DNA of 64,000 nt. Origin: Armatimonadota bacterium. Its GTDB lineage: Bacteria > Armatimonadota > SYMT01. The notes under the pieces were generated by a model. That model ran no database searches and was not told where the DNA came from. It saw nothing but the letters and a program-made list of their open reading frames with translations. Where the stretch lies: NCBI GenBank assembly GCA_041690135.1, contig JAWLHY010000012.1:160001-224000 (forward strand), written 5' to 3'. A program made the position numbers and the translations under genes. Of this stretch, positions 9,270 through 35,045 are shown in pieces. Position 1 is the stretch's first letter; every line of letters begins with the position of its first letter.

Positions 9270-9445
9270 AGCGGGTTGGGCAGAAACTGCCCAAAGAGGG
9301 GCCTCTCGATGGCTAAATTCGCGCTGGTCGGACTATCTACCCAGCGGGAGGACCGCATCGCTCCCTGAGTCACGGCAGGGTCAGGGCTTTGTACCGCTGG
9401 TGAGACGTCGCGCTCACTGACCGTGACACAGGCAGCGGTGTTTTT
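9270..9445 (+). promoter_or_regulatory. Conserved leader element, copy 1 (operator-like palindrome, promoter-like segment, structured RNA/terminator)
   Basis: Aligns with 14503-14588 + 15223-15315 and with 34863-35045; contains the palindrome ttgggcag-aaa-ctgcccaa. Confidence 0.8.
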
Positions 9446-10067
9446 GCGTTGCCGGCCGCTGAGAAGGGGCCAAATCTCTCGCAGACCCATACGGGTCCGA
9501 ATTGGAGCCGCCAAGACGCAAAGGAAGACGCATAAGGTGAGGAAAGTGCGGCCGGAGGGGCGTCCCTTCGACCGCTGTTTTTGTCTCTGAAGAGACGCCT
9601 GATGATCCGGAAATCGGAGGGGCAGGGCGGGCTGCGGAGCCTTCGCAGCCCGCCCTACCCGTCTCAGAGCCTGTCTAAGAAATGGAGGAGCGGCCTGCAA
9701 CTGGCTGCGAGCCGGGCATGCGTTGTCGGGCCGCCAGGCACGGTCATGCTTCGAGAACGAGCCCGGCGTCCCTCCTAGCCTGCCCGGCTCTCGCTCAGTT
9801 TCGGCTTCGCTCCCATTCTTAGACAGGCTCTCAGGTTCTTATCGGGGTGGCGACCCACCCCCAGGAAGCACGCCAGATCTACGCTCTCGGGGAGTCGGGA
9901 CAACTCTGGCGGTAAGGAGCAGCGCAGTGGCATCAGGAAGGAAGACAAACACCATTGACTGGCCCGCTTGGACCAGCGCCCCTCGGATTCGGCCCACCGG
10001 CGGAGCCAGTCATCCGCAGCACCGGACCCCAGAGCGGCCCGGTGCGACCTCTGCGAGGGGACCCGTG

Positions 10068-13000
10068 ATGAAGGCGCCAGCCAGGCCGAAAGTACCAGCG
10101 CCTGCGGGTGGCACCCTCCTAGCGTGGCAACGGCAAGTGGCGGAACTGAACCGCGAGATCCAACAGATCAAGCAGTGGCAACAGCAGCCCGGCACGGTCT
10201 ACGGCACCGCCCAGCGAATGATTGAAGCGCGGATCACCCGCATGAGCCTGCTGAAGCAGCGGATCGAGGAAGCGAAGCGCGGGGTTCGCACGCCGCCCAC
10301 CCATCCCCAATCGGTGGAGCGGCGGAGCGCGCAGGCAAAGCAAGCCATGGCGCGGTCCGCGGCCCACCGGCGCGCAAAGAATGCTTTCAACGCCACGGTG
10401 CCGATCGACCTGATCCGCCTGGAAGCGGAGCGGGAGAGCCCTCTGACCCAGCAGGTCGCGAGTGGTCTGGCGGGAGTGGTGGGTGCGGACCCCTACCAGG
10501 ACGAGTCGCGGGCCATTCTCCGCAAGCGGCAGCAGAAGGGCACGGCGCCGACCCTACGAGTCCAGCCCGCAGAGGTGGGCCAGATCCAGGCCCTGCGGCC
10601 CTATGTGGAGGACTTCCTGAACGCCACGCGCCGGGATTACCACACGCTGCGGAAGCAGGGGATCACGCCGCTTTCCGTGGACCGGCTGCGCGCGTATCTC
10701 CAGCAGGAATATGCGGGTCGCCGGAAGCTGACGGCGGCGCAGGAACGGGCGTTGCCGGGCATCCTCGCCGGGCTGCAAGTGCGGTGGGACGAGCGGGTGC
10801 GCGGCGCCAAGCGCGTAGGCGCCCGCCTGGCGGAGAATGCCGTCGGCGTGGCGACCGGCGGAGCGGGCCTCTTGCCGCGCGCGGCGGCGGCGGCCAGCGC
10901 GGGGATCGTCGCGCAGGCGTTCGTCGATACGAACCATCCGGAACTGACCGCGGCGGAACGGCTCCAGTCGGCCGGCACGGCGGGTCTGTTTTCGGCCGGT
11001 GCGGAGGGTCTCGGCGCCGCGTGGCAGGCAGCGCGCAAGGTGAAGAGCCCCACGGTCTCCCCGGGACCGGTATCGCCGCACCCGGTACCCGGGGCGCCAC
11101 ACTCCGCAAAGCCGGGGCCCGCCGGAGGGCCGTTCGCGGAAGCGAAGCCGGGGAACTCCCTTCCGGCAAAGGCTCCCTCTCCCGGCCCGGCTCCCCGGCC
11201 CCGCCCGGGAACGCGCGTGACGGTGAAGACGCCCCGCGGCGCCCGGATTACCGGGGAGGTCACCCGCTCCTCGCCGGACGGTCGGACGGTGTACGTGCGG
11301 AACTCCGCCACGGGTAAGGAGGTGCCGGCCAGGGTACCGCCAAAAGGCGCACCAGGCGTGCCCCAGAAGGGCGCGCCCGCGACACCCTCGAAAGCCCCTG
11401 CGAATCCGAAGCAGCCGGCGGTAGGCGGTCCCCAGCCTACTCCGGCACCGCAGCAGGCGTCTCCGGCCGCGAAGCCACCGTACCCGCCGGTGCCCGCGCG
11501 CCCCGCGGAACCCCCGGCCGTTACCGGATGGTCGGAGCCTACTCCCGCTTCGCAGGGAACCTTGACCACGGCGCAGCATGGGGGACACCCCGGCGACGAA
11601 CGCCCGCCTGGCAAAGCAGACGGCGAACGACGTGGCCGGGGCCGCCCCGGCTCCCCGCAGCCGGCCGGAGGGGGCACCGGGTAACCGCAGTGCTCCGGCG
11701 TCACCGGGCGCCACCGGCAACCGGAAACCGGGTACCGCACCGGACGCGACGGGCAACCCGAAACCCGCTACCGCACCGGACCCGGTGGAAGCACGGTCGG
11801 GCCAGCGCGGCGATACACCCCCCGCGGTGCCGGAGGCGCCGGTGACCCGGGGAGGCCCGGAACCGGAAGGGGTCCCGGCGAAAGCGACCGGATCTCGTCG
11901 GCGCCGTCCGGTGGAAGGGATGCACGACTCCGCCCTGACGGGAACGGCGGCCACCGCCACGACGCGCGCCGCCGCGCGCGCCACCGGGCGGACGGCACCG
12001 GGAATCCCCACCGGCACGCCCGTGGCCACCCCTACGGGCGGGAGCATGGCCTCCCCCGGCGGGCCACCTTCCCCCGGCGGAACACCCCCCACGGGGGGAC
12101 CGCCCCGCGGCGCGCCACCCGGTGCCCCCGGACAACCGCAACCGAGAACCACTACCGCCCCCGCGCAGCAGCCGGGGGCGGTCGGCGTTTCTGGCTCCGC
12201 GGGAGGGAGCAAAACCCCCACGTCCCAGAGCCAGGGAAGGCCTCCGGGACTCACCCCGGGTGGCCCCCCATCGGGGCCGCTTCGCCAGGCGGAGGTCGAG
12301 GAGGACATCCGCGACGTACTGGCGCGGCTCCGGAGCGGCGGCCGGAAAAGCAACGAGAACGGCGCCTTCACCCGCGCGGGGGATGAGCAGCGGCTGAGAG
12401 ACCTCCGGCAGGAGCGGCAGGACCTGGTGCGCGGCCGGGGCGGGCGGTACCGGGTGGGGGAGCCGGTGGTCGGCACCCGGCACAACGGGACAAGGGAGGC
12501 GCTGGTCTACGACGGGATGGCCAGCGACACGCACGCCTACGTGAGAGACCCCAGGACGGGACGGCGGCGTTCGGGAACGGTGCCGGTCGAGCGCCTGCGG
12601 ATACCAGCACCCGGTGTCCCCAACAGCCGTCGTGCAAAGCTTCATGCCCACTTGGATGCAGCGGAAGCCGCCGCCCGGCAGAAGTTGAGTGCGCTCCGGG
12701 CTTCGCGCCGGGGCGGGAAACTCGCTGCCGGGCTTGGCGGCTTTAGTGACCTGCTGGAGGAAGCACCGCACTGGATCGAGATCGGCGCGGTGCAGATGGC
12801 ACGTGGACTGCTCGAGTTCGACGCCTGGTCGCGCCGGATGCTGGAGGAGTTGGGGGACGAACTGCGGGCCACGGGGCGGAACGTGGATGAATTACTCCGG
12901 GAGATCTGGGGTCTCTCACGAAGAGTACATGGTGAAGAAACACATAGCCGTGGCAAACAAACGTCCGATCTGATTCTAGGGAAGAAGAGCCTCGCGTTCA

Positions 13001-13526
13001 CGCCCGCCGAAAGGGAATTAAAGCCGCTTCACTGAAGCCTAAGAGCAAGAAGGGTGCTGCCAACTACCTCAAAGCCGCGGAGGAGCGTGAGTATCCAGAT
13101 AGCGCTGCCTTCCCTTGGGGAGAGGGTGATTTTAAGGTGTGGTTCGACAGTGCGAATATGGAAACTTTCGTGGCGGCATGGACTGATAAGACCGTTAGAC
13201 TAGCTATCGAACGGCGGATCCGCCACCCCGGAGGTCTCCACGAATGGTTGATGACCGCACGGGCAGACAAATTCAAGGAGTGGGGTATGTCTATTGCGCT
13301 GATTCATGAGCTACGTACCCGCATAGTAGATGTGGAGTGGGTTAATCCATCTGGGCGCCACGGTGGAAAGGGTTCGGGGCGAGCTCACAGGGAAATCTTA
13401 AAGCTGATCGACGCCAGTGCGACCTATGGCGAGTATGTAGTTGCTTTGAACAAGTGGGCCGACAGTCGCCTTAAGGGTGGTCGGACTGCATTGCCTGATG
13501 GACTTCAGATTGTGGAGGGGAGATGA
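10068..13526 (+). pseudogene. Polymorphic giant protein A, broken into three frames (10068-11684, 11578-13035, ~12948-13526); His-rich putative nuclease-type toxin tip
   Basis: N-part is paralogous to D (RMIEARITRMSLLKQRIEEA / AGVVGADP). Carries the shared linker and shared domain. Tip reads RHPGGLHEWL...GRHGGKGSGRAHREIL...LPDGL. Confidence 0.7.
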
Positions 13527-14203
13527 CGGAGAGTAAGCTATACGAATTCTGGCAATCCGTTGTGGGCGTAGACGAAGATGAGAGTTGGTCTGAACCAGCC
13601 GACTTGGTCTTCCTTTTCCAGAATTTTCGTCCCCATGGTCAAGGAGTAGAGAGGATTCTCAATGGTTTTTGGGGAGCGAGGCAAATGCTTCCGCGATTGC
13701 TGGAAGTATACAAAGCCACTGCCTCAGGATGGGATGCGCGTCCAGTTGCATTTGATTACTTCCTAGTGACTGAACCTACGCACATCGATGACTCCCGCGT
13801 AGAGGAGTTAATCAGGAGCTACCTGGACAAGATGAAGCGTATGGCCGAAGAGATCAACTACAGGCAGACTGCGTCGAATCTATCGGTTGTTGAGCGAGTG
13901 CAGATCGTCCGGGCGCAAGATGCACCCCACTCATTGGATTTGAGCAGAACCGAGGACTTGCTTTATGCAATGCAGAGTGACTTTTTCAGCTTGACGCCGA
14001 GCCAACCCAGTGAACTGTGGTTGCTGGAACCCGCGTTGTATTCGATGGCCAATGATAACCCGCTTACGTACCATCTGCTCTGGCCCTTGAAGGCGAAAGG
14101 CAGTAGTGTAGAAGAACCGTTTCTACCCTACTTCGAACTTTGGAAACATGCAGTAACCCTCAGGTTGGATGCTGATCGGGCAACCGCTTATATTCCGGCA
14201 TGA
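13523..14203 (+). CDS. Putative immunity protein for tip A
   Basis: ATGA-coupled to the tip ORF, lower GC than its surroundings, 226 aa, no recognised motif. Confidence 0.6.
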   Translation: MTESKLYEFWQSVVGVDEDESWSEPADLVFLFQNFRPHGQGVERILNGFWGARQMLPRLLEVYKATASGWDARPVAFDYFLVTEPTHIDDSRVEELIRSYLDKMKRMAEEINYRQTASNLSVVERVQIVRAQDAPHSLDLSRTEDLLYAMQSDFFSLTPSQPSELWLLEPALYSMANDNPLTYHLLWPLKAKGSSVEEPFLPYFELWKHAVTLRLDADRATAYIPA

Positions 14204-14259
14204 CGAACACAAGCATGGAGGGTGCCGAAACAAGTAGCCGGATCCATTTCTGGATGAGG

Positions 14260-14475
14260 TCGTGGGTCGGGCTGTCGGCACCCGCACTGGGACAACCGCG
14301 GCCACGACACTGGCCGGAAGCGTCGGCTCACCCGCCGGGGGAGCCCCGGCAGGCGGAGCACCCCCCACGGGGGGACCGCCCCGCGACGCGCCGCCCGGTG
14401 ACTCCGGACAACCGCAACCGAGAACTACCACCGCCCCCGCGCAACAGCCGGGGGCGGTCAGCGTTTCTGGGTCCG
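14260..14475 (+). repeat. Orphan linker remnant with hairpin (GGAPPTGGPPR...[11 protein letters not shown])
   Basis: DNA similar to 12040-12195, 55880-55990 and 58520-58660. Confidence 0.85.
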
Positions 14476-14502
14476 GCTCGGGGGCGTCGACGGCCGGGAG
14501 GA

Positions 14503-14588
14503 AGCGGGTTGGGCAGAAATTGCCCAGAAAGGGGCCTCTCGATGGCTAATTTCGCGCTGGTCGGACTATCTACCCATCGGGAGGACCG
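14503..14588 (+). promoter_or_regulatory. Leader element copy 2, 5' half (palindrome, promoter-like segment, RBS)
   Basis: Near-identical to 9270-9355. Confidence 0.8.
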
Positions 14589-14592
14589 ACCG

Positions 14593-15015
14593 GTGAACAG
14601 TGATTTCGAAACCCAACTGTCCGAATACTGCCGCGAGGCCCGGCTGACAGCCGTACAGACGGAGATCGTGGAGCTCTACCTGATCCTGGAGATGCCGCCA
14701 GCGCAGATCCGCTTGAAGACGGGGCTGAAACGGGTGAGCCAGGTGCAGGCGGAACTCGCCAAAGCGCTCCGGAGGCTGCAAGCCGTGGCGCCCGGCTTCT
14801 GGGAAGAGGGGAACGCCTTCCCCCGGCACCTGCTGGCGGCGGTGCGCAACCGTCCCGAACGCGACGAGCGGCCGCGGGACGTACGGGGCGTGACCCCGGA
14901 CCGGGAGGCGGAGCGGGCGCCGCGGGTGCGGATGGTGACCGCGGGCGACCGGCGCCTCCGGCAGGACCTCCGCAGCGCGGCCCGGTTGTGGGCGCGGTCG
15001 CGGAGTGGTGCATAG
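14593..15015 (+). CDS. Sigma70 region-4-like HTH protein; candidate late activator/antiterminator
   Basis: GGAGG RBS before GTG; LTAVQTEIVELY......PAQI....GL..VSQV...L.KALRRL resembles the sigma-4 HTH; located directly before the lysis/packaging genes. Confidence 0.55.
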   Translation: MNSDFETQLSEYCREARLTAVQTEIVELYLILEMPPAQIRLKTGLKRVSQVQAELAKALRRLQAVAPGFWEEGNAFPRHLLAAVRNRPERDERPRDVRGVTPDREAERAPRVRMVTAGDRRLRQDLRSAARLWARSRSGA

Positions 15016-15222: not shown

Positions 15223-15315
15223 CATCACTCCCTGAATTACGGCAGGGTCAGGGCTTTGTACCGCTGGTGAGACGGCGCGCTCACCGGACCGTGATACCGC
15301 AGCGGGTATTTCTTT
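15223..15315 (+). ncRNA. Leader element copy 2, 3' half (candidate pseudoknotted RNA)
   Basis: Matches 9356-9445 and 34951-35045, with base-pair-preserving changes. Confidence 0.55.
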
Positions 15316-15337
15316 GCCTACCGGAAAGGGGGTGGGG

Positions 15338-16597: not shown

Positions 16598-16716
16598 GCA
16601 GTGGAGGGCCTTCGGCCGATTGGATGAGGATTAGGATGAGGATCGGCCTGCGGCCTCTGGAAGGCAGTGGGTAGTGGAGGGATGGAGGGGTGAGGGGTGG
16701 GTGGAGAGGCGGGTGG

Positions 16717-16780
16717 GAGTAGGAGTAAGAGTAAGAGTAAGAGTAGGAGTAAGAGTAAGAGTAAGAGTAAGAGTAAGAGT
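16717..16780. repeat. (GAGTAR)n hexamer microsatellite, ~10 units
   Basis: Read directly. Confidence 0.95.
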
Positions 16781-16850
16781 GGGGATAGGTAGAGTATGAG
16801 TGGGGATAGGCAGAGTATGAGTGGCTCCGGGATGGGGGAGGTGTGGGAGG

Positions 16851-17467: not shown

Positions 17468-18259
17468 ATGGCTACCGGATCGCGGGCACGTTTCGACGTG
17501 CCCGCTTTTGTTTCGGACCTGCTGCCGAGGATGAAGCCGTACCTGCCTCCGGAGCCGGAGCAGGCGCCGAACCCCTACAAATCGAGCTTCCTCCTGTTCC
17601 TGCGCGATTGCGTGTGGACCGTGGACGAGGCGCGAGGCGGCGAGGTACGGCGCTGGCCCTGGGGGGTGGGCAAAGACGGAAAGAGCTGGGAGGAGTACTG
17701 GAATGACTGGGACGTGGCACTGCACAAGTATCCTCGCCTGTTTGTCGACAAGACGCGCCGCACGATGGCGTCGAATGTGGTGGTGGCGTGGGACCTCTGG
17801 CTGCTGGCCGGGGGGACGGACGGGAAGGCTCGCTGGCCGGAACTGGCCGGGAACGATGGCAACCGCTCGGTCCTGATCCAGAGCAAGAAGCTGGAGGGAG
17901 AGACCGGCAGCCAGGCGTTCATCGCGAAGATCAAGCGGATGTGCCAGCACTTTGAAGATCGCGGCGGCCGGGAGCTGTGGCCGGACTTTCCCGAATGGGA
18001 GATCGGCCTGACCAAGGGGCACTTCAGCAACGGGAGCCGGGTGGAGGCGGTGGCGCAGGGCGGCGACCAGGTGCGGGGGCCCGGCTCCACCCACATCCAC
18101 ATCGAGGAAGCCGGGTTCATGGACCAGGTCCAGGAGAGCATCGAGACGGCGATCCCGGCGCTGGCGGGCGGGGGGCACATCACCGTGGTGACGACGCCGA
18201 ACGCCAACGCGACCTACCTGAAACGGCTGCGGGCCGGGGAACTGGGGGCGAGAAGATAA
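17468..18259 (+). CDS. Terminase large subunit, ATPase half
   Basis: Walker A-like DKTRRTMAS, Walker B HIHIEEAGFM, coupling motif VVTTPN. Confidence 0.8.
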   Translation: MATGSRARFDVPAFVSDLLPRMKPYLPPEPEQAPNPYKSSFLLFLRDCVWTVDEARGGEVRRWPWGVGKDGKSWEEYWNDWDVALHKYPRLFVDKTRRTMASNVVVAWDLWLLAGGTDGKARWPELAGNDGNRSVLIQSKKLEGETGSQAFIAKIKRMCQHFEDRGGRELWPDFPEWEIGLTKGHFSNGSRVEAVAQGGDQVRGPGSTHIHIEEAGFMDQVQESIETAIPALAGGGHITVVTTPNANATYLKRLRAGELGARR

Positions 18260-19217: not shown

Positions 19218-19536
19218 GACCATGATAACGATAAGGATAAGGAGAGGGATGGCAGAACCAGATCTCTTCTTATCGGGGCGGGGTGCGTGCTTCTGCGCTT
19301 TCGGCCCCCTACCCCGGCTATGCCGATTAGGATGAAGATGAAGATTAGGATAGGGAGAACGCACTTCGGCTGTCACGGCTTCTTCTCTGGACTCCAAGTG
19401 CGTGCTTCCGCGCTTTCGGCTCTCCCCCCAATCCAAGGGAAGTGCGAGTTCGGGACTGGTGCAGCTGGTGAGGCCGAGCTGATGTGAGGATTGACTCCGG
19501 TCAGGATTGAGATCACGAGATGACGCTGGTAGGTGC

Positions 19537-19568
19537 GGGCGACCTGTGGGGTCGCCCTTTTCTTTTTT
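19537..19568 (+). terminator. Intrinsic terminator
   Basis: gggcgacc-loop-ggtcgccc followed by a T-tract. Confidence 0.75.
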
Positions 19569-19582
19569 CTGGGGAGGGCGGG

Positions 19583-20515
19583 ATGAGACAACGGTTGTTG
19601 GGGACAGTCCGGGAAAGCAACGGGCTGGAAGGTAGCGACGGCCTGGCGGGGTGGTACCAGCCGGTGGGGTCGTATTACCTGGTCCGGTTCCTCGAAGCGG
19701 AGACGGAGAGCGCGGGGGGCATTGCGCTGCCGGAGACGGCGCTGCCGGACGTGCAGAGCGCGCTGGTGCTGGCACACGGTTCCGGTCCGGTGCTGGCGAA
19801 CGGGCGGCGGTACCCGATGCAGGGCGCCGTGGGGGACGTGGTGGTGAGCCAGTCGTTCCGGTTCGAACGGATGGACGGGCAGGCGTTTCTCGCGGATGAG
19901 AGCCTGGTGGCGCTCCAACGGTGGGATGGCGAGGGGCATGGGGCGCTGCAGGCCGCGGGGGACTGGGTGCTGGTGCGGCCGGATGGAGCGAAGCAGGTGG
20001 ATGCGGAGACGCGCGCGACGGTGCAGGCGCGGGAGAGCGGCGTGCTGGTGGCCTGCGCGAGCGTGGGCGGCGGGCACCTGCGGGAGCAGCAGCGCGGCGA
20101 CGAGATCGTCCGGGAACTGGAGGCGCTGGTCCGGACCGAGGCGTTCCGGCAGCAGCCGAGCGAGTTCTATCGCCACCGCATGATCCACGACTACCTGGAC
20201 GGCCTGTGCCAGTGGGAACTGCAGGCGCTGGGGACGGCCCTGAAGCGGAAGGGCGAGACAAACTGGCGCCACTACGTGCCGCCGCGGCCCCTGGCCCGTG
20301 CGAGTGCGGGCGTGGTGGTGAGCGTGGGGCCGGGCCGGGTGCTGCGAGACGGCACCCGCCGACCACCGGGGGTGCGGCCGGGTGACCGGGTGCATTTCGA
20401 TCGGCAGTTCCAGGCGGTGGCGCTGTTGTCGGAAGGGGACAGTCTCTGGGCCGTGCGGGAGCAGTTCCTGGCGGCCGTCGAGGTGACGGAGGAGAAGACG
20501 AATGCAGGGTCCTGA
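19583..20515 (+). CDS. Tandem double GroES/Cpn10-like co-chaperonin
   Basis: Domain 1: QPVGSYYLVR..EAETESAGGIALP...VLAHGSG...GDVV. Domain 2: LQAAGDWVLVRP...GVVVSVGPGR...VRPGDRVHF. Confidence 0.85.
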   Translation: MRQRLLGTVRESNGLEGSDGLAGWYQPVGSYYLVRFLEAETESAGGIALPETALPDVQSALVLAHGSGPVLANGRRYPMQGAVGDVVVSQSFRFERMDGQAFLADESLVALQRWDGEGHGALQAAGDWVLVRPDGAKQVDAETRATVQARESGVLVACASVGGGHLREQQRGDEIVRELEALVRTEAFRQQPSEFYRHRMIHDYLDGLCQWELQALGTALKRKGETNWRHYVPPRPLARASAGVVVSVGPGRVLRDGTRRPPGVRPGDRVHFDRQFQAVALLSEGDSLWAVREQFLAAVEVTEEKTNAGS

Positions 20516-22833: not shown

Positions 22834-22861
22834 GGGCTGGGGGTATCCCCCGGCCCTTTTT
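22834..22861 (+). terminator. Intrinsic terminator after portal
   Basis: gggctggggg-tat-cccccggccc followed by TTTTT. Confidence 0.7.
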
Positions 22862-22898: not shown

Positions 22899-25800
22899 AT
22901 GATGAGAGACGGGAGCGGAAACACAGGTGCAGCAGGAGGGACAGCCTTTCACACAACCAGCCCATATGCGGGATCGATACGGAAGTATGAGCAGGAGCTG
23001 GCGCGGCTGGAGCGGAAGTCCGCCGAGTGGAAAGGGGTGATGAGCGACCCGACGCAGCCGCCCGGACGGCAGAAGGCGCTGTTCGGGAGGCTGCAGGGGA
23101 GTGAGGCGTCGGGCCGGCCGGCGCCGGGGACGGTGAACGCGCGGGCCTTGCGGCTGCGGGCGCAGATCGACGCGTTGAAGCTGGCCGAGCGCGTGTACCA
23201 GGCCGACCCGACGACCGAGACCCGGCGGCGGCTGGACACCTATCTGAACCGGGGAGCCCGGATCCGGGACGAGCGGGACTGGGTGTGGAACGAACGGAAG
23301 GCCCTCCGGACGGTACAGCAGGAAGTGGAGAAGCTGCAGGGCCTGCCGGGTTTCGGCAACGCGCAGACGCAGTATGCGGCCCGATATAACGCCTATTTGA
23401 AGCGCGGCGGCGCGCTGCGGGCGCTGGAAGGGCAGCACGAGGCGGAGCGGAAGACATTCCAGAATTACCAGCCCAAGCCGGCGCCTACCGCACCTCCGTT
23501 CGGCTCCAGGCGTACCCCTAGCCGGACGGAGCCGCCGCAGCCGGGGGTAATTCCCGCCGGGTTCGTTCCAACCCAAAACAGCAAGCCGACCACGACCCCG
23601 CCCGTGAAACCCCGCCCCGGTGCGTCGCGAGGCCGGGCGTTCAACCCGTTTAGCTACAACGTGTACGGTCATCAGCCGGATTTCGGCGAATGGGCGGGCC
23701 AGCAGGCGGTCAAGGGGATCGAGAGCATTGGGCGGGTCCTGGGGTTTGGCGGCACGATCGACGCTTCCAAGCTGCCCAGCAAACAGTACGCCGAGCTCTA
23801 CCCACCGGTGTATCTCTCCGAGGACGACCAACAGTTGGCCCGGGAACTGGCGGAGATCGGGCAACTGCGGCCCCACGTTGCGGGGGTGATCTCTCCCTTT
23901 GTGAAGGCCTACCGGTCGGAACTCGGGCGGCTCCCGCGTACAACGCAAATGCTCATTCAAGCTCAAGCGGCGGCAGGAGTCGGTGCGCCGGGCCCCTCGG
24001 CGGAGGAACTTCGGAAGGCCGTACCGCAGGAGGTCTACGATCAGCGTTATGCGGAAGCCATCGCGCGCAGCCTGGGCGGAATGAACGAGCAGGGGCTGAT
24101 CGCTTCCTTTGAAGCCAAGCTGGGCCGGCCATTGACCTCGCTGCAGAAGAAGGCCGTGGGCGCCATCGCCGCCGCAGAACGCCTCAAGCTGTTGAACGAG
24201 GGGAACTACACCCAGGCGCTTTCCGGTGACCTCCGTAACGTAGTGATCAGCTATGCCGCGGGGGCGGGGGCGGGGCAGTTCTTGCGGTATCTCAAGGGGC
24301 CGGCGGCCGGACTGGCGCAGAAGCTGGGCACGCGGCTCCCGCCGAAGACCCAGGCGGCGATAACGACCCCACTGGGCAAAACGTCCACCCAGGCGCAGCG
24401 GCTGACCGAGCCGGTCCGGAGGAAGGTCCCGCCCGTGGTGCGGGAAGCGCTGATCAAGACGCTGGACCCGGTGGAGCATACGGCCGCGGGGGTGTCCGAA
24501 GCGGCAATCCAGGCGTTTGAAGTGGCCTCCGACCCCCACCTGACCTCCGGCCAGCGAGCGGAAGCGCTGCAACGGGCGTTTGTGGAAGGGGCGAAGGCCA
24601 ACCTGGGCTTCGAAGCGATGCTCCAGGGGGTGCTCCTGGGCCGGCACGTCTGGCGTGGAAGAGGCAAGGTGGGTGGCGCCGACCTGTCGCGCCTGCGGGA
24701 CCAGGTGGCCAAGGATTTCCGCACCCTCGAGCCCCAGTTGGAAGTCGATCCGGAGGCGCTCGACCGGATGTCCGGAGTACCCGGCCTGGGGAAAGCCTAC
24801 GCGATCGTCCGAAGGGGCCAGGCTAAAGGCGCCAGGTTCGGCGTGGTGGAGGGGTATGGGATCGTGGAGATCGGGGCCGAGCAAAACGGCCGCGTGTTTG
24901 TGCGTGCCGTGGCCCAGCCCAGACAGCGGTTCGAAGTGCCCGCGGACCGCCTGCACGAACTCACGCTGCCGAAGCCACCCGTCGGCACGCGCCCACCCGC
25001 ACCCGCCGGAGCACCTACAGGGAAGCCGGATACCAGCCGGAGGACTCGCCCGCAGGGGGCGCCTCCCACGGTAAAGCCTGCAACGGTACCCCAGACAGCG
25101 GGCAACCCGAAGCCGGGCCCGAACGCGTCGATGCACCCACCGAACTCCATGGCGGGAGCCCCGAAACCGGGAGAAGGCCCGGCAGGAGGAGGCAAGAAAA
25201 CACCCGCAGAGAAGACAGGTGTCCCCTGGTCCGCCAAGCCCGTTGATGCGGGCACCGGCGAGGGGCACGGGGGGCACGGGGATCCCGGCGCCAGCCATGC
25301 GCCGCAGGGGATGGAACCGCCTGGGGACGGCCTCCCGCAAACCGTGCGGACCGCAGTGGCGGAACCCCCCTCCGGCCCAGGCAAGACGAGGAACGGTAGA
25401 GCGACCCAAGACCCCACGCACTCGCCTGGAAATGGGGCTCCCGATCCGCGTGCGGATTACTCCGCCACCCAATCCAGGAGTACGGTAGTAGATGACGGTG
25501 CCGGCTCCAGGAAGAGTGCAGAGGGTCCGGTTGGCGGCAAACCCGGACGCGACGGGGGAGCCGGTACCGGCTCCGGTCCGGACAGCCGCAGGAAACCGTA
25601 CGGCCGGAGTGGCTCCACCAGCTCTTCTGGGACACCGCCCCCCGGAGGCGCTCCGGCGGGAGGGCCGCCGCCCAATGCTGGAGGTGCTCCGCCGGGAGGG
25701 CCACCACCCAATGCCGGAAATACCGGCCGGTCAGCCCCGAAACCCACCACCGCCCCCGCGCAACAGCCGGGGGCGGTCGGCGTTTCTGGGCCAGGTCGAG

Positions 25801-27203
25801 GGGAGTTACCAACAACGCAAGGCCAGGGGAGACCGGTCCCGGTAGAGGCAACCGGGGATCCCGCGGGAGCGAAGCCCGGGCAGTCACCGGACACCCACCG
25901 CAGAACCGGACCGGGAGTGGCCCGGTCCGTAGAGGCTCTGCGGCGCGAAGTGGACGGGGAACTGCGGGAGGTGCTGAAGCGGCTGGAGAGCGGCGGACGC
26001 ACCGCGCAGGGAACGGGGCGCTTCACCCGTGCGGGGGATGTGCGGCGCCTGGAGGAGCTTCGCCGCGAGTGGCGGGACCTGGAGCGCGGCTGGGGCGGGC
26101 AGTACCGGATCGGTGAGCCGGTGCTCGGCATCCGGTGGGACGGTCGGACCGAAGCGCTGATCTACGACGGGATGGCGAGCCCCACGCACGCCTACGTGAA
26201 GGCCGCAGGGACGGGGTTGCGGCGGCCAGGCACCGTGCCGGTGGGGAGTCTTGCAGGTGCAATGGCGGCTCAGTCGAAGCTGAATGCTCCCACTACGCCA
26301 GCTACTTCGGGTGCTCCCACACAGAACTTGACACCTCCTTACATGCAAGCCATTCCGTTGAAACAGTCCATCGGGGGATCTGACAGTATTGCAAATGCAT
26401 CACATGGCAAGCGCCCGGAGGTGTTCGGTCGTCCCAGTGGGATTGAGCAGTATGCTAACGATCATCCGAAGCAGCACGCACAATCGAATGATCGAGGCGA
26501 GAGCATTCTCGCATTCCCTGAAAAGAATAAGAGCTCCAAGAAAGTAGAAGAGAAAACTGGTAAGGGCAAGAAGGACAAGAGGCCAGAGCAGATCAAGGAG
26601 TGGGAGGGTCGCCTTATTGACGAGTGGGGGTTGAAGGAAGTATATCTCGGTGAAACAATCCACATCGCGCAATGGACCTATACGGGTTTAAAGAGCCTGC
26701 GCGAACTCGGCCTACCACTTCCAAAACGTGTGCTCGTAGATGCTACATCGTTTGCGACGCGTGGCCGAGTGGCACAAGCGGACATTGACACTCGAAGTCT
26801 TCACGTCAACCCGCTCAGTAAGTATTTTTCCAGTCGCACTGCAATGCGAGAGCAGATTAGAGACGACTTCGATAGTGGATACGCTTCGACATCTCACGAG
26901 CATCACATCCTACGGCATGAGTGTGCCCACTTTGAGCACGCTGATGTGGTTGGGGCACAGGTTATTAAGGCGGAAATGACAGCACACGGAGCGTTCCCGA
27001 CAAACCTGGTTGGGGACGATGGAACACCCAAACCGATACCTCCTGGTGACCCAATCGATACTGCTCGCTTGGTAAGTGGCAGAGCAGTAGACAGTGCCTC
27101 CGAGTTTGTTGCTGAAGTGAGAGCTAAGGCTCTGAACGGTGAATCAGTTGAGGAACTTGTGCGAGAATGGTATTATTACTTTGGTGGGCCAACGCTTCCG
27201 TGA
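22899..27203 (+). CDS. Polymorphic giant protein B with C-terminal zincin-like metallopeptidase tip
   Basis: Shared linker and domain at ~25240-26250; AT-richer tip with ST..HHILRHECAH and SEFVAE (HExxH plus downstream E). Start uncertain. Confidence 0.75.
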   Translation: MMRDGSGNTGAAGGTAFHTTSPYAGSIRKYEQELARLERKSAEWKGVMSDPTQPPGRQKALFGRLQGSEASGRPAPGTVNARALRLRAQIDALKLAERVYQADPTTETRRRLDTYLNRGARIRDERDWVWNERKALRTVQQEVEKLQGLPGFGNAQTQYAARYNAYLKRGGALRALEGQHEAERKTFQNYQPKPAPTAPPFGSRRTPSRTEPPQPGVIPAGFVPTQNSKPTTTPPVKPRPGASRGRAFNPFSYNVYGHQPDFGEWAGQQAVKGIESIGRVLGFGGTIDASKLPSKQYAELYPPVYLSEDDQQLARELAEIGQLRPHVAGVISPFVKAYRSELGRLPRTTQMLIQAQAAAGVGAPGPSAEELRKAVPQEVYDQRYAEAIARSLGGMNEQGLIASFEAKLGRPLTSLQKKAVGAIAAAERLKLLNEGNYTQALSGDLRNVVISYAAGAGAGQFLRYLKGPAAGLAQKLGTRLPPKTQAAITTPLGKTSTQAQRLTEPVRRKVPPVVREALIKTLDPVEHTAAGVSEAAIQAFEVASDPHLTSGQRAEALQRAFVEGAKANLGFEAMLQGVLLGRHVWRGRGKVGGADLSRLRDQVAKDFRTLEPQLEVDPEALDRMSGVPGLGKAYAIVRRGQAKGARFGVVEGYGIVEIGAEQNGRVFVRAVAQPRQRFEVPADRLHELTLPKPPVGTRPPAPAGAPTGKPDTSRRTRPQGAPPTVKPATVPQTAGNPKPGPNASMHPPNSMAGAPKPGEGPAGGGKKTPAEKTGVPWSAKPVDAGTGEGHGGHGDPGASHAPQGMEPPGDGLPQTVRTAVAEPPSGPGKTRNGRATQDPTHSPGNGAPDPRADYSATQSRSTVVDDGAGSRKSAEGPVGGKPGRDGGAGTGSGPDSRRKPYGRSGSTSSSGTPPPGGAPAGGPPPNAGGAPPGGPPPNAGNTGRSAPKPTTAPAQQPGAVGVSGPGRGELPTTQGQGRPVPVEATGDPAGAKPGQSPDTHRRTGPGVARSVEALRREVDGELREVLKRLESGGRTAQGTGRFTRAGDVRRLEELRREWRDLERGWGGQYRIGEPVLGIRWDGRTEALIYDGMASPTHAYVKAAGTGLRRPGTVPVGSLAGAMAAQSKLNAPTTPATSGAPTQNLTPPYMQAIPLKQSIGGSDSIANASHGKRPEVFGRPSGIEQYANDHPKQHAQSNDRGESILAFPEKNKSSKKVEEKTGKGKKDKRPEQIKEWEGRLIDEWGLKEVYLGETIHIAQWTYTGLKSLRELGLPLPKRVLVDATSFATRGRVAQADIDTRSLHVNPLSKYFSSRTAMREQIRDDFDSGYASTSHEHHILRHECAHFEHADVVGAQVIKAEMTAHGAFPTNLVGDDGTPKPIPPGDPIDTARLVSGRAVDSASEFVAEVRAKALNGESVEELVREWYYYFGGPTLP

Positions 27204-27599: not shown

Positions 27600-29056
27600 C
27601 CAGTAGCTCCGCCCCCGCGCAGAAGCCGGGGGCGGTTGCCGTTTCTGAGCCCGGCCCGGAGATGGCAGGAGAAACTCCGGGGCTGGGGCCGCAGCAGGGG
27701 AAGCCGCAGCGGATTCCCCGGTCGCAGCAGGCCCCAGCACCGGTAACCACAGTCAGGACGCCGGTCGCGCCGCCGGAGCTTCCGGGTCCCGCGCTGGCGC
27801 AGCAGTTGCCGGCGGGGCAAAAGGTCCGGCACATCACCGGGCTGCGGGAAGCGGCGGACTGGCTGCCGTGGTTCCTCGCCGGGGGCGGGCCCCTGCCACG
27901 GGAGATCAAAGCCGGGGGCAAGGAGATCCTGGCGGAAGGGCGGGGACCGTACTCCGTGGTGATCGAGCTGGACCCTAGCCGGGTGACGGGGCGGCAGCTG
28001 CATGCGAAAAGCGAGGTGTACGGGCTGAACCACATCGGCCCGGATGCGGTGACAGCGTTCGTGGCGCCCAACCGGCTGGTGCTGCGGCGGTACCGGGCCA
28101 AGCCGGGGATGGAGGCCGCGTTCGACTTCGAGAACGCCCAGAAGGTGAAGCACGGCTACCGGGTGCTGCGAAGGGGACGGCTGACTCCGTTGCTGGCTAC
28201 TGGACCTCAGTTCACGGCAAGGCACGGAGTCCAGACCAGTGATGACAACATCTGGCGCGATGCTCCGGAGGTAGGGAGTGCCCGAGATCGGACGCTTGAA
28301 CGGCGCCCACTGCAAGCGCTTCCCGGCCCGGAAGACACTTCATCTGCTCGTGATACACCGTGGTCCAGGAGCGAGCAAAAGCGACAGCGGCGAGCCGCAG
28401 AGCGGGCTCAACGGGAGATTCGAGGTATCGATGAAGCTTCCTGGGCGGACTTCTCGTAGATGCCGGGTAGGATCGCTGAGCGGATTATCGACGAACTGGC
28501 TGCCTTGCAGCGAGACTTCCACTTCACCGTCCGGGGCATCTATCCTTCAGACCATCGGATCTGGTGGAGTGCCAGACCGCAAAGCACCAGTTACTTTGAG
28601 ACCGATGGACACCTGCTTGCCTATGGCGTTGATCGGTGGCATCCTGACGCAATTGAAGCCAGTCTCCGAGAACTACAGGCACAAGAACATACCAGCCAAG
28701 CGTCGAAATCGCTCGTCGCGGCCGTGGATCATGACGTATGCCATATGATGATCGATCAGGCTATTCAGCAAAGGAGCGGAAGCATCAAAGCCAGACTGGA
28801 GCAACGTGTTCAGGAACGTGTGGAACAGTACCGGCAGGAACTGGGAGAGGCTGCTATTGTGGAAGAGTTAGGAGATTACGCGTGGTATGGGACGCTGCGC
28901 AACCGGAATGAACCGGGCCGTGAGCCTCTGGACACGGCATGGAAGGAGACGATAGCCCAGGCCTTCTCCGCCTATCGTGCGGACCGCGAGACCGTGAGTG
29001 AGCCTACCGCGCGTCTGGTAGAGGATATCCTGGAAACGTTGGACTTGAGGAGGTAA
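27600..29056 (+). pseudogene. Orphan toxin cassette (27662-28459, in-frame TAG, 28460-29056) with degenerate zincin
   Basis: Begins at a hairpin copy (27608). HExxH is replaced by HDVCH and E.IAE by ETIAQ; followed by a Cys-rich gene. Confidence 0.6.
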
Positions 29057-29466: not shown

Positions 29467-29521
29467 GGAGAGGACTTTCGTTGCCTCCACCCGGGGGGAG
29501 ACGTTTGTCCCCGGGTCCGCC

Positions 29522-31600
29522 ATGCCCGTCGATGCCGGCACCGGCGAGGGGCACGGGGATCCCGGTGCCGGCCATGCGCCGCAGGGGATGGAACCGCCTG
29601 GGGACGGCCTCCCGCAGACCGCGCGGACCGCAGTGGCGGAACCCCCCTCCGGCCCGGGCAAGACGGGGAACGGTAAAGCGATTCAAGACCCCACACACTC
29701 GCCTGGAAACGGGACCTCCGACCCGCGTGCGGACTACTCCCCTACCCCATCCCGGAGATCGGCGGTGGATGACGGCGCCGGCTCCCGGAAGATGGACGCG
29801 ACAGGGGTCGGCGGCCAACCTGGACGCGACGGGAGCGCCAGTAAAGGCACCAGTCCGGGCAATCGCACGAAGCCGTACGGCCGGAGTGGCTCCACCAGCT
29901 ATTGGGGGACACCGCCCCCCGGAGGCGCACCGACGGGAGGGCCGCCGCCCAATGTCGGAGATGCTCCGCCGGGAGGGCCGCCACCCGGCACTCCCGGACA
30001 ACCGAATCCGAAATCTACCACCGCCCCCGCGCAACAGCCGGGGGCGGTCGGCGTTTCTGGGCCGATACGGGGTGAGGTACCGACGCCGCAAGGCCACAAC
30101 AGGCCGGCTCCGGTAGAGGCAACCGGGGGACCGGCAGGAGCGAAGCCCGGGCAGTCACCGAACTCCCAGCGCAAGAGCGGACCGGGAATGGTCCGGTCCG
30201 CCGAGGCCTTGCGGCGAGAGGTGGATGCCGATCTGCGGGAGGTGCGGAAGCGGCTGGAGAGCGGAGGACGCACCGCGCGGGGATCTGGGCGCTTCACCCG
30301 CACGGGGGATGTGCAGCGCCTGGAGGAGCTTCGCCAGGAGTGGCGGGACCTGGAGCGCGGCTGGGGCGGGCAGTACCGGATCGGTGAGCCGGTGGTCGGC
30401 ACCCGATGGGACGGTCGGACCGAAGCGCTGATCTACGATGGGATGGCGAGCCCCACGCACGCCTTCGTGAGGGACGCAGAGACGGGGCTGCGGCGGCCGG
30501 GCACAGTACCGGTGGGAAGCCTTCAGAATACCCGCTGGGCTGGAACGGAGTCGGACGTGACCACGGTGCCAATTGGCTCTGGCACTCCGCATCTGGGCAA
30601 AACGCATCCAATGAAGGAAAGCGGCTTGGTCGTGCACCGCGGTTCTACTACTCAGGTCGCGGCTACAGACGCCCATATGTTGCAGGATGTGGATGGTTCA
30701 ACACCCCAACGCTCGTCGCAGCAAAGTAAGAGTACGACAAGTGGATTTGCAGCATCATCCTCTCCCGTCGGGCCAAATCCTTCCCATTCACGCGGTGGGA
30801 GAGGGGGTGATCCGCCGCAGGGAGGTGACAAAGCAACCACTTCGGGCGGTGACGACCACAACCCTCCTTCTAACCCCGACTGGATTCACAAGACGGTTGA
30901 GTGGAGGAGAGAGGAGTTCGAGGAGTATGCTAGAACGAGAGGTTACACTCTAGATGAATACGTTAACGAGGCAGATCGCCACCTTACTGGATTACTGGAT
31001 CACATGAGCTTTTTCTTGCAGGTTGGAGGTGATGAGCTACTCTCCGCACTCACTGAGGGTCGATTCAAGAACCAATTTGCCACTGGTACATCCCGCGGCA
31101 TCCTTTCTGCAGAAGTTCGCCGGCAGACCGAACGAGCACTATGGGGCATACCAGACCAAGCCGGGTGGGAGGAGCGCCCCATCTATGGCTTCTTGCATTC
31201 GCATCCCGATGCGATGCACCCGGATGCCCCCCAGGCACTAAGGCAGTATGGTGGTGTTACTGTGAAACTGAGTGACGCTATGCGGCCTCGAAGCACATTT
31301 ACAGGAGGTGACTCTCTAGATCGCACACGATGGGGCGACTTTCCAAACCTTGCACCCGCATCTGTTCTCCATCCGAATATACTGGCAATATCGGAACATA
31401 TGGGCGATGTGCTCGAAATCACGAATGCAGATGCGCTAGTTCGTAGTGCTGAGAGTAATGTGTCTTATATAGAAGCGCAGTACTTCGGACCGGTAACCGT
31501 AAAGGAGATCGTCGAGGTCATATTTGATGCTGAGGCTCTGACACCACCTATCAAAAGGCTATTGGATAGTCACACAATCCCGTACCGGATCAGACAATAA
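29522..31600 (+). CDS. Orphan module C: linker + shared domain + DUF3626-like tip, lacking the N-terminal delivery region
   Basis: First ~1 kb duplicates 25220-26250; tip has GRFKNQFATGTSRG, RPIYGFL, QYG, RSTFTGGDS and YIEAQ motifs. Confidence 0.7.
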   Translation: MPVDAGTGEGHGDPGAGHAPQGMEPPGDGLPQTARTAVAEPPSGPGKTGNGKAIQDPTHSPGNGTSDPRADYSPTPSRRSAVDDGAGSRKMDATGVGGQPGRDGSASKGTSPGNRTKPYGRSGSTSYWGTPPPGGAPTGGPPPNVGDAPPGGPPPGTPGQPNPKSTTAPAQQPGAVGVSGPIRGEVPTPQGHNRPAPVEATGGPAGAKPGQSPNSQRKSGPGMVRSAEALRREVDADLREVRKRLESGGRTARGSGRFTRTGDVQRLEELRQEWRDLERGWGGQYRIGEPVVGTRWDGRTEALIYDGMASPTHAFVRDAETGLRRPGTVPVGSLQNTRWAGTESDVTTVPIGSGTPHLGKTHPMKESGLVVHRGSTTQVAATDAHMLQDVDGSTPQRSSQQSKSTTSGFAASSSPVGPNPSHSRGGRGGDPPQGGDKATTSGGDDHNPPSNPDWIHKTVEWRREEFEEYARTRGYTLDEYVNEADRHLTGLLDHMSFFLQVGGDELLSALTEGRFKNQFATGTSRGILSAEVRRQTERALWGIPDQAGWEERPIYGFLHSHPDAMHPDAPQALRQYGGVTVKLSDAMRPRSTFTGGDSLDRTRWGDFPNLAPASVLHPNILAISEHMGDVLEITNADALVRSAESNVSYIEAQYFGPVTVKEIVEVIFDAEALTPPIKRLLDSHTIPYRIRQ

Positions 31601-31989: not shown

Positions 31990-33030
31990 ACTAACCCCGC
32001 CCCCGCACAGAAGCCGGGGGCGGTCGGCGTTTCTGGGCTTGGCCCGGGGGCGGTGGGAGAAACTCCGGGGCTCGGGCCGCAGCAGGGGAAGCCGCAACGG
32101 GTCCCCGCACCCCAGGGGATTCCAGCAACGGTACCTACGCGCGGCGCGTCGGTCGCGCAGCCGGAGCTTCCGGGGCCACCGCTTTCCCGGCAGTTGCCGC
32201 TGGGGCAGAAGGTGCGGCACATCACGGGCCTGCGGGAAGCGGCGGACTGGCTGCCGTGGTTCCTCGCTGGCGGGGGCAACTGCCGCGCCAGGAGGGACGT
32301 GGCGCCGGAGAAGGGAGGTGGTTGTTCGAATGGGGATTGATAGCAGACGATCGAGGAACGGAGTGCCAGGCCTTTGCTGCTGACTTTCGGGTGGTGACGG
32401 ATAGGGTTCGTTTGCCTCTCGGGCTCACCTACGCCGGGGGCAGCGGAGCCCCACGCGGCACGACGGGTGTAAGCCCAAGGGCCGGCGGGGACGGAGATCC
32501 CGCCACCCCCGCGGGGCGTAAACCTACTTCTTCAGGTGCGAGGACAGAGCTCATGCCGTTCACCAAGAGCCACTTCTGCCGTGGCGCAGAGGGGGCGTTG
32601 ACCGCCGGATCCTGTGCGGCAAGTGAACCACCCGTTTCGAACCCGAAGGATGAGGGCGAAGAGAGGCCGAAAAACTGAAGCAACTGAAGGCGCGGATCGA
32701 GAAGATCGTGCGAGCCGCGGTGGCGGCAGGAGCACTACCTCTCGAAGGGCTGGAAACCTGGTGGCAGAGACACGACTCGCCGGTTCATTCTCGAAGAGGT
32801 ATCCAGTGAGGTTGGCTGTCGATCGTAGAACGAGTGCGACGGCTTGCTTCGGTGTTGAGGTGGCAGATGGAGAATGACTCACCCTCCTGCTGGACGCTCC
32901 TTGATGCGGGCAGACCCTCGGATGGGGATAGTTCGCAGGCGGTGGAGACGGTCATCACAGAGGTGAGCGGATTGCGGAGGGCCTTCATTGGGAGGAGCGA
33001 CCGTAGGGCCTGCCATGGACCTCGAAAGCC
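31990..33030 (+). pseudogene. Decayed orphan cassette starting at a hairpin
   Basis: 31997-32277 duplicates 27608-27885 (LP.GQKVRHITGLREAADWLPWFLAGGG), then frameshifts and stops. Confidence 0.6.
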
Positions 33031-33050
33031 CGGACCGCAGGAGCAAGAAG

Positions 33051-33691: not shown

Positions 33692-33933
33692 CAGCTTCTG
33701 CGTTCATGGATGAAATCGAACGGCTGATACAAGCAGGTGACACCGCTGGAATAGTGGCACTGGAGAAGGAGTATTTTCAACGCTTGAAGTACGAGCTGTC
33801 CCCTGAGGATCGGACGCAGTTGAGCGGTGCCATCTTGCCCTGGGCCACCATGGTCGAGAAGGGAGTGGAGCATCAACGTCGCATAGTTGTTGCGGACGAG
33901 ACTGAGGCAGCGGCTTGGGGAGGTGACCAGTGA
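33688..33933 (+). CDS. Small hypothetical protein (orphan immunity-like)
   Basis: GTGA overlaps with neighbours on both sides. Confidence 0.55.
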   Translation: MTASAFMDEIERLIQAGDTAGIVALEKEYFQRLKYELSPEDRTQLSGAILPWATMVEKGVEHQRRIVVADETEAAAWGGDQ

Positions 33934-34286: not shown

Positions 34287-34312
34287 GTCGAACGATGGGA
34301 GTGGATCCCGGA

Positions 34313-34840
34313 ATGGATCATCGAGCTTTCGTTTTTGACTACAGCCGGTTTGCCCGGGAGTTGAAGCCGGTGCTGGAAAGGGCGCTGGAGACGGATGACC
34401 CCGCGGAGATCGTCCGCTTCATCGTCGCTCATCGCACGAAACTGCGTGACCCGGACGAGGGCGAACCTCTCCCGGAGGACTGGGAAAGCCGGCTCGAGGT
34501 GGGTGACATCCATGAGTATGGAGACCTGGCGCTCACCCGGTACTATGACCCGCGGGAAGATCTCGGCATGGGGAACGGCTGGGATCTGGTTCAAGACCTG
34601 ATCCACGCCGATCCGTCCCTATCGGTATCGCCGATCCTTGGCGTTCCGGTGGGTACGTGGGAACACCCCTTCGACCCGGGGCGCCTCGGGTCTTACTTCC
34701 AGAGCCCGGAAATGGTCCAGGCGCACCTCGCCTACCTTTCACGACGGTCCTCGTCGGCCGCGGTTGCCGGTCTGGACCAGGCTACCGAGATGCTCAGGGC
34801 AGCCGCCCAGCGGGACCAGGGGTTGTACGTGACCTTTTGA
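34313..34840 (+). CDS. Hypothetical protein (immunity-like)
   Basis: Clean ORF, MDHRAFVFDY...FDPGRLGSYF...GLYVTF. Confidence 0.65.
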   Translation: MDHRAFVFDYSRFARELKPVLERALETDDPAEIVRFIVAHRTKLRDPDEGEPLPEDWESRLEVGDIHEYGDLALTRYYDPREDLGMGNGWDLVQDLIHADPSLSVSPILGVPVGTWEHPFDPGRLGSYFQSPEMVQAHLAYLSRRSSSAAVAGLDQATEMLRAAAQRDQGLYVTF

Positions 34841-34862
34841 GCCCGGAGGGAGTGCTTGACGG

Positions 34863-35045
34863 GAAGCGGGTTGGGCAGAAATTGCCCAGAGTGGCGCTTC
34901 CGGATGGCTAATTCCGCGCGGTTCGGACTATCTACCCTATGGGAGAACCGCATCATTCCCTGATTCACGGCAGGGTAAGGGCTTTGTACCGCTGGTGAGC
35001 TGGAACGCTCGCCGGACCGTGATCCCCCAGAGCGGTGGTTTCTTC
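34863..35045 (+). promoter_or_regulatory. Leader element copy 3, preceding the head-gene block
   Basis: Colinear with 9270-9445. Confidence 0.8.

Follow-up and report, generated by a model that had tools for sequence, protein, structure and literature searches.

What is served by a leader, about 90 nt long, which stands in three copies ahead of three gene blocks of a phage-like cluster in an Armatimonadota bacterium (GTDB lineage SYMT01)? The locus lies in a stretch of 64,000 nt, referred to here as the window (contig JAWLHY010000012.1 of assembly GCA_041690135.1, positions 160,001 to 224,000 of the forward strand), and an earlier note on this DNA took the leader either for an undescribed cis-regulatory RNA, attenuator or antiterminator, or for a small packaging-associated RNA. 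To our knowledge, the RNA elements known to render bacterial RNA polymerase terminator-resistant are few (put, EAR and canT), and all of them come from well-studied phyla. The answer proposed in this study, held tentatively and at a little short of an even chance, is that the leader acts in cis to gate, and probably also to load, processive antitermination; for a packaging-associated RNA nothing was found in support.

Three copies of the leader in the genome

The three leader cores were located at 9356-9439 (copy 1), 15223-15308 (copy 2) and 34951-35037 (copy 3), all on the plus strand and each followed by a T-rich tail. Together with the T-runs the copies span 9356-9450, 15223-15320 and 34951-35050 on the plus strand, and scored 101.8, 112 and 100.8 bits, respectively, with R1, a covariance model built from the three copies themselves. 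When the window was searched with R1 with all filters off, the next best match after the three copies (100.8-112 bits) reached 14.3 bits. A BLAST search of copy 1 against its own genome (9.1 Mb in 25 contigs, 65% G+C) listed 10 matches, 3 of them real (E 3e-52 to 2e-18) and 7 noise (E of at least 3). The positions of the three copies in the earlier note were thus borne out by two kinds of search, and the whole genome carries these three copies only. Pairwise identity among the cores is 79-87%, while the 80 nt flanking each core are 51-58% identical, which is the background level, so that the leader is a repeated unit with sharp edges.

The Rfam search over the whole window gave no match at gathering score. 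For copy 1 alone no match was found at E of 10 or below, and for copies 2 and 3 only chance rows appeared, at 12.5-17.4 bits against cut-offs of 32-66 bits. That the RNA is undescribed therefore holds within the search of Rfam 15, in which no family reached its gathering threshold. The window contains no tRNA or tmRNA gene.

A promoter-like module upstream of each leader

A genome-wide motif search gave exactly three modules, one upstream of each leader, and together with alignment placed them on the plus strand at 9268-9355 (copy 1), 14501-14588 (ahead of a regulator gene and leader copy 2) and 34863-34950 (copy 3). The 88 nt that copies 1 and 3 have in common upstream of the core comprise a 19-bp palindrome (TTGGGCAGAAAYTGCCCAR), GATGGCTAA, TCGGACTATCTACCC with TATCTA, and GGGAGRACCG. 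In the module of copy 1 these parts are the palindrome TTGGGCAGAAACTGCCCAA at 9276-9294, GATGGCTAA, the -10-like TATCTA at 9334-9339 and GGGAGGACCG at 9346-9355; the palindromes of the other two modules lie at 14509-14527 and 34871-34889. The palindrome core and TCGGACTATCTACCC occur in the three modules and nowhere else in the 9.1 Mb. The module at 9268 is 93% identical to that at 14501 and 82% to that at 34863 (82-93% overall), and the palindrome and the promoter blocks are invariant in all three, each with a stem and U-run downstream. From the putative -10 hexamer, transcription is predicted to start at around 9343-9346, which would put the centre of the palindrome at about -60, and judged from their sequence the module elements may bind a factor.

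The layout differs among the copies. For copies 1 and 3 the order is module, leader and genes; for copy 2 a regulator gene (14593-15015) stands between module and leader. The GGGAGGA of the 14501 module doubles as the predicted ribosome-binding site for the GTG start codon of this gene at 14593, and leader copy 2 follows 207 nt past its stop codon and 39 nt ahead of the ATG at 15359, which opens an open reading frame (ORF) of 86 aa; the gene for a GH108 lysin comes next. The core of copy 2 is whole even though it is separated from its module by 634 nt, an argument that the core does not depend on the promoter DNA for its function. This complete core is the main argument for action of the leader at the level of RNA.

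Terminators at the gene boundaries of the cluster

The cluster extends over 48.6 kb (about 9.2-57.8 kb of the window), and all its convincing genes are on the plus strand and of the phage structural or lysis type, with SU10-like head, tail and lysis functions. Strong intrinsic terminators, defined as a stem of at least 8 bp with at least 6 G-C pairs followed by a T-run, number 10 on the plus strand of the cluster, all at gene boundaries, and none on the minus strand; across the genome the two strands combined average 0.73 per 10 kb. Of 667 sliding windows, the four with the highest density overlap the cluster without exception, and each of the others holds 7 terminators at most. Single terminators were found by the scan at seven plus-strand sites (17482-17505, 19537-19557, 22834-22856, 38321-38350, 39459-39484, 43972-43991 and 47039-47064), and a triple tandem terminator at 35537-35645 on the same strand, made of 34-nt units (GGCCGTC-loop-GACGGCC, then TTTTGTGTT). 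This triple terminator comes after the 73-aa ORF that is the first one past leader copy 3 (35082-35303, plus strand, no family match) and 37 nt ahead of the block of head genes, which starts at 35682. Such a distance leaves no room there for a promoter of the head genes. Expression of these genes from the modules therefore seems to call for a polymerase resistant to terminators.

The same arrangement bears on the proposal that the three copies are genes for trans-acting small RNAs (sRNAs) of about 100 nt, counted from module to U-run, with targets such as host or phage mRNAs or with a protein decoy role, copy 2 then being a form made from the 3′ untranslated region of the regulator mRNA. A promoter, a length of about 100 nt and a stem with U-run are indeed the layout of an sRNA gene, and about 600 nt after copy 1 as well as about 380 nt past the small ORF after copy 3 seem non-coding. 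Neither a target nor a partner was identified for such an sRNA, however, and the head genes after copy 3, with too little space ahead of them for a separate promoter, would still require read-through from the module. We consider sRNA genes a poor prospect for this locus.

Anatomy of the leader

In copy 1, taken as the reference and read on the plus strand, the leader is composed of a first hairpin, P1 (9363-9367 paired with 9376-9380, loop 9368-9375), a junction (9381-9393), an outer stem, P2 (9394-9399 with 9433-9438), an inner hairpin, P3 (9400-9404 with 9413-9417), and a T-run (9440-9450). P1 (CCCUG/CAGGG with an 8-nt loop) is present in all three copies, as is P3 (GUGAG/CUC(A/G)C), which is stacked inside P2 and the loop of which differs at 5 of 8 positions. 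P2, (A)CCGCTG/CAGCGG(T), can also be formed in all three, with a bulged G in copy 2 and, in copy 3, with either a bulge of 2 nt or a shift of the register; it is 6-7 bp long, mostly of G-C pairs, encloses 33-35 nt, and is followed in each copy by a T-rich tail (GTTTTTGCGTT, ATTTCTTTGCC and GGTTTCTTCGTC) in spite of the 65% G+C of the genome. The junction of 13 nt, U(C/A)AGGGCUUUGUA, has the same base in all copies at 12 of its 13 positions. The loop of P1 is complementary to CCGUGA(C/U) within the region closed by P2, by 7 bp in copy 1 (9369-9375 with 9421-9427, the candidate pseudoknot), by 7 bp including one G-U in copy 2, and by 6 bp in copy 3. All four structural elements described in the earlier note, i.e. 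the ccctg..caggg hairpin, the gtgag..ctc(a/g)c hairpin with a variable loop, the outer stem with its T-rich run and the loop-to-downstream complementarity of 6-7 bp, were therefore recovered from the three copies, the outer stem with the bulges given above. Variable columns of the alignment amount to 4 of 46 paired and 16 of 40 unpaired ones (Fisher p = 0.0008), indicating that substitutions spare the stems, and we regard the leader stems as plausible. The P1-loop pairing may help the leader to fold.

These data can be set against the main rival explanation, in which the leaders are plain attenuators, that is, the first terminator after a late promoter, and terminator resistance is conferred by a protein loaded at the promoter as for lambda Q, AlpA or GafZ. 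The regulator or an ORF that went unrecognised could be the loaded protein, and P1, the junction and the loop pairing would then be left over from a recent duplication without any function as RNA. The modules are better conserved (82-93%) than the leaders (79-87%), and the palindrome and invariant blocks are usable by a DNA-binding factor; covariation in the leader is not significant; other duplications in the cluster show similar identity; and Q, AlpA and GafZ, in the portions of the reports that describe them (PMC11150451, PMC7969949), all act in this manner. The spared stems and the nearly invariant junction speak against it, as does copy 2, in which all of P1 and the junction are retained at a distance of 634 nt from the module, where a terminator alone would suffice; besides, a stem of 6-7 bp around 33-35 nt is odd beside the other terminators of the cluster, which are compact with stems of 8-13 bp. 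Plain attenuation is, in our judgement, somewhat less likely than action by the leader.

A second conformation bears on another proposal, that the leader is a riboswitch-like sensor in which a small molecule would shift the balance between P2, the terminator, and an extended P3 (CUGGUGAG/CUCACCGG). The extended P3 appears in the minimum free energy (MFE) folds of copies 2 and 3, where it competes for half of the 5′ strand of P2, making the two mutually exclusive. Riboswitches typically have such a compact fold, with a hairpin, a junction and a possible pseudoknot beside a terminator. In copy 1, however, the extended P3 is weak; no Rfam riboswitch was matched; the element was found in one genome only; and a single attenuator would leave the passage of ten further terminators unexplained, so that a riboswitch seems most improbable. 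An extended 19-bp helix in the MFE fold of copy 1 was rejected after inspection, because copies 2 and 3 do not share it.

The anatomy also bears on whether the copies might be sites that act as DNA, for packaging, recombination or replication, instead of transcribed signals. Direct repeats, three of them in a phage-like cluster, might in principle serve as DNA to which a protein binds, and TCACGG with CCGTGA makes an inverted repeat as DNA also. All copies stand in one orientation, however, between modules and gene blocks, and carry the strand-specific T-run (3 of 3), a variable loop on a conserved stem points to RNA, and neither copy 1 nor copy 3 has the terminase-like genes next to it. DNA-level sites are accordingly given very little credence.

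The regulator encoded ahead of copy 2

The gene at 14593-15015 (plus strand, GTG start) encodes a regulator of 140 aa, with an N-terminus like the helix-turn-helix (HTH) of sigma region 4 and a conserved C-terminal half. The protein itself has no match in Pfam or PHROG. One close relative was found among 5.8 billion clusters, and an exhaustive HMMER search of 1.84 billion proteins gave 41 representatives including the regulator itself; the closest relative is a Logan/ENA protein (P0044, 63% identity). No relative was detected in the IMG/VR viral contigs, and 400 genomes of the phylum gave only weak matches of 26-31 bits, confined to the N-terminal HTH. The family shares C-terminal motifs such as DERPxGVRGVTP and DDRRLRQD.

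Prediction of the structure from the single sequence was poor (predicted local distance difference test score, pLDDT, 65) and the fold search with it uninformative; it was redone by AlphaFold with the family alignment, giving a pLDDT of 89.4. In Foldseek, the N-terminal ~60 aa of this model superpose on chains of region 4 (the -35-binding region) of extracytoplasmic function (ECF) sigma factors with a probability of ~1 and TMt of 0.67-0.80, the E value of ~0.5 for the same matches being due to their short length. The sigma-region-4 fold of the N-terminus agrees with weak matches to Sigma70_r4_2 and GerE, in 4 and 3, respectively, of 34 family members, and with the language-model neighbours of the regulator, which are labelled phage ECF-sigma-like. 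The C-terminal half gave no fold match. The regulator apparently defines an unnamed two-domain family. The frame 14200-14592 is open and continuous with that of the regulator, so that a longer, fused form is possible.

A proposed mechanism and the evidence that weighs against it

If the leader acts as an RNA at all, as we infer that it does, the repeated unit may be described as a cassette in two parts that controls the late genes in this SU10-type podovirus-like cluster. The first part would be a weak promoter with a 19-bp palindromic operator centred about 60 bp upstream of the predicted start, a position as expected of an activator-dependent promoter. The second part would be the leader of about 90 nt, with P1, the 13-nt junction and the P2/P3 stem with U-run, acting in cis on the elongating RNA polymerase. 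Outside the activating condition, transcripts would end at the terminator-like stem of the leader itself; under the activating condition, polymerase that has moved past the leader would turn terminator-resistant and pass the ten terminators downstream. The site of this conversion would be the leader RNA, working either as a put- or canT-like RNA that acts on polymerase, or as a nut-like site for a factor, for example the sigma-region-4-like protein encoded beside copy 2.

A stronger form of the first route can be formulated, in which the leader is a new, self-sufficient and pseudoknotted RNA antiterminator, put-like in function and unrelated to put in sequence, that rides with polymerase through ten or more terminators of a phage-derived, possibly gene transfer agent (GTA)-like particle cluster, the terminal stem serving as a fail-safe stop whenever the fold is not made. 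We regard this stronger form as rather improbable.

Several results weigh against antitermination by the leader RNA, and they are gathered here. Covariation does not support it: of the 23 proposed pairs, 20 are invariant, 2 vary on a single side to give G-U wobbles, and the single pair that changes on both sides goes from G-C to A-U in copy 2 and to a U-U mismatch in copy 3; the covariation score was equalled by 155 of 500 shuffles and is not significant, with three sequences only. The complementarity of the P1 loop is marginal against dinucleotide shuffles (p = 0.026 for copy 1, Watson-Crick pairs only; 0.039 for copy 2, G-U allowed; 0.076 for copy 3, Watson-Crick pairs only). The nested MFE gave z-scores of -2.27, +0.14 and -0.63 for copies 1, 2 and 3, thus beating shuffles in one of the three copies only. 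The leader stems were not called by the scan with the consensus for intrinsic terminators, because the loops that they enclose exceed the limit of the scan. No antiterminator family, Q-type or other, was recognised among the ORFs scanned against Pfam and PHROGs, a scan in which some small ORFs were not included.

The identity among the copies can also be read in another way. The order of identity among the cores (79-87%) tracks that among the modules (82-93%), and the identity of the cores is similar to that of other duplications within the cluster. Internal coding duplications of 75-89% identity were found for 25213-26256 against 29499-30527 and 12366-12601, and likewise for 27604-27888 against 31992-32276 and for 12001-12199 against 14277-14475. 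This history of segmental duplication bears on the reading of leader similarity: the conservation of the leader may reflect the age of a duplication and not selection.

Taken together, the context of the leader (the modules, the stem with T-run and the 10 terminators) fits a cis-regulatory attenuator or antiterminator, as put forward in the earlier note, while the main argument of that note, a covarying pseudoknot, lacks statistical support and the word covarying was an overstatement. The covarying pseudoknot is a lead, short of a proven result.

Search for relatives of the leader and of the cluster

No homologue of the leader was found in any of the genomes, viral contigs, phage records or loci searched, which also weighs against the mechanism proposed. 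R1 gave no match in the genomes of 150 relatives, the pattern GGCAGGGNNAGGGCTTTGTACC none in the IMG/VR viral contigs, and blastn with module plus leader none against 50,697 phage records. An 18-mer of junction and P2 gave 22 single matches in the GTDB species set, which were dismissed, being in unrelated taxa, with R1 scores of at most 19.5 bits and in a number close to chance by our own estimate; the palindrome in viral contigs gave 8 loci, all in unrelated coding sequence and with no R1 match, which were likewise set aside.

The loci of capsid relatives were examined in the same way. All R1 matches had E of at least 0.31 on 32 viral loci and of at least 0.19 on the closer 23 of 45 metagenome loci; two weak R1 matches at one locus (L053) lie inside a 541-aa ORF and were rejected as chance. 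No repeated leader-like element was present in 7 related loci, and no module motif in loci L013-L089. With the capsid profile, no relative was confirmed in contigs of the GTDB species set, and the best matches among 400 genomes of the phylum were distant (200 and 176 bits). The closest capsid relatives are Logan/ENA proteins (P0002-P0007, 60-80% identity); the leader searches left out the contigs that encode these and P0044. One capsid relative carries the source label Armatimonadota metagenome-assembled genome, which is no more than a hint at the host.

The cluster is a clean and testable candidate for antitermination in an unstudied lineage. As an experimental system it offers a defined module, a leader of 90 nt of which nature supplies three variants and, for the read-out, a triple terminator already in place, and a new two-domain regulator family comes along with the cassette. 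Even if the leader should be a plain attenuator, the locus would represent control of late or GTA-like genes by activation plus antitermination outside Proteobacteria. The value of the cassette depends on experiments or on retrieval of relatives.

Other features of the cluster and its flanks

The cluster includes genes for the GH108 lysin, a terminase-like ORF, a Cpn10-domain ORF, a SU10-type portal, the capsid, two SU10 adaptor-like ORFs and large tail or virion proteins. The Cpn10 (GroES) domain lies within a 331-aa ORF (19520-20515) beside the portal gene, and a virion-type protein of 1790 aa (52382-57754) combines an SLT transglycosylase and a zeta-toxin-like kinase domain. Integrase, repressor and replication families were absent among the cluster ORFs scanned. 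On its flanks the cluster is bordered by host histidine kinases and a LysR regulator, and it may represent either a defective prophage or an element of the GTA-like kind. At a distance of 5 kb to the left, and between two hybrid histidine kinases, a gene at 3721-4242 encodes a 173-aa protein for which only a LexA DNA-binding domain, and no peptidase domain, was reported; this protein is a candidate repressor of the cluster.

After leader copy 1, about 600 nt (9440-10060) carry no clear coding signal, a 12-bp hairpin rich in G+C at ~9625-9655 is without T-run, and the annotated 653-aa ORF starts probably near 10068. Downstream of copy 3, about 380 nt beyond the small ORF are non-coding in appearance. 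After this ORF, CACGGAG occurs four times within 35 non-coding nt (35316-35350), and CACGG is also found in the P1 loop of the leader; in the window as a whole CACGGAG was found 23 times against 15.2 +/- 3.5 expected, not clearly above chance. A purine-rich non-coding stretch between the lysin and the terminase-like genes (16600-16830) contains a 12-nt tandem repeat, GAGTAAGAGTAA, with variants, in 5-6 copies, and a related purine-rich stretch precedes the Cpn10-domain ORF (19325-19355).

Comparison with known systems of antitermination

The likeness to the put sites of phage HK022 is one of layout, judged by description. As described in the portions of PMC9378689 at hand, put sites are repeated similar cis elements of 70-90 nt with two stem-loop domains ahead of terminator-bearing operons; the leaders are likewise repeated and placed ahead of terminators, and their P1 and P2/P3 may form two such domains. 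Of the put sites, putL is promoter-proximal while putR lies ~270 nt from the start site, much as one copy here stands next to its module and copy 2 farther away (~650 nt). Differences are also clear. Within the same portions of that source, put has no built-in terminator, U-run or reported loop pseudoknot, whereas in the leader (~85 nt) the 13-nt junction links the two putative domains, and a U-run closes the second. Furthermore, put acts on early genes, whereas the leaders described here precede late structural genes. Antitermination by put requires no protein factor and depends on the zinc-binding domain of the polymerase beta' subunit.

With Q, AlpA and GafYZ the cluster shares a promoter with a DNA element that would bind a factor, a terminator shortly downstream and a long phage-like cluster to be read through, as well as a small sigma-contacting or sigma-like regulator encoded nearby, as far as the consulted portions of PMC11150451 describe those systems. 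The GTA cluster of Caulobacter, according to the same portions (PMC11150451), needs an activator and the antiterminator GafZ for passage of a three-repeat terminator after its first gene, and this terGTA after gtaT resembles the triple terminator after copy 3. A conserved leader RNA is not required in those systems. The regulator described here has no Pfam family and is sigma-region-4-like in its N-terminal 60 aa only, and the palindrome is about 60 bp upstream of the predicted start and not between -35 and -10.

Lambda nut sites and rRNA leaders (boxB hairpin plus boxA) resemble the leader in that a conserved U-rich motif, single-stranded (GGGCUUUGUACC here), comes after a hairpin and that several copies stand downstream of promoters. 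The boxA-like motifs GCTCCTTGAAAA and GCTCTTTGAAAA (GCTC(C/T)TTGAAAA) were detected in 2 of 10 rRNA leaders of the same phylum, while no assembled 16S leader was available from the own genome or 6 genomes of the family. Between the junction GGGCTTTGTACC and the boxA-like motif of the phylum, 7 of 12 positions agree by our own comparison, which is weak, and, unlike lambda, the cluster encodes no recognised N-like protein.

The EAR element of Bacillus is a cis-acting, operon-internal RNA that confers processive antitermination. Likewise, canT of Tn916 is, in the portions consulted of PMC11658703, an RNA within a mobile element or operon for which processive action in cis on terminators has been proposed, as it is here for the leader. 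Both canT and EAR are single-copy elements, unlike the leader, and the leaders show no relation to them in sequence or in Rfam. The cassette thus fits none of the families of known antitermination systems, and yet it resembles their control regions.

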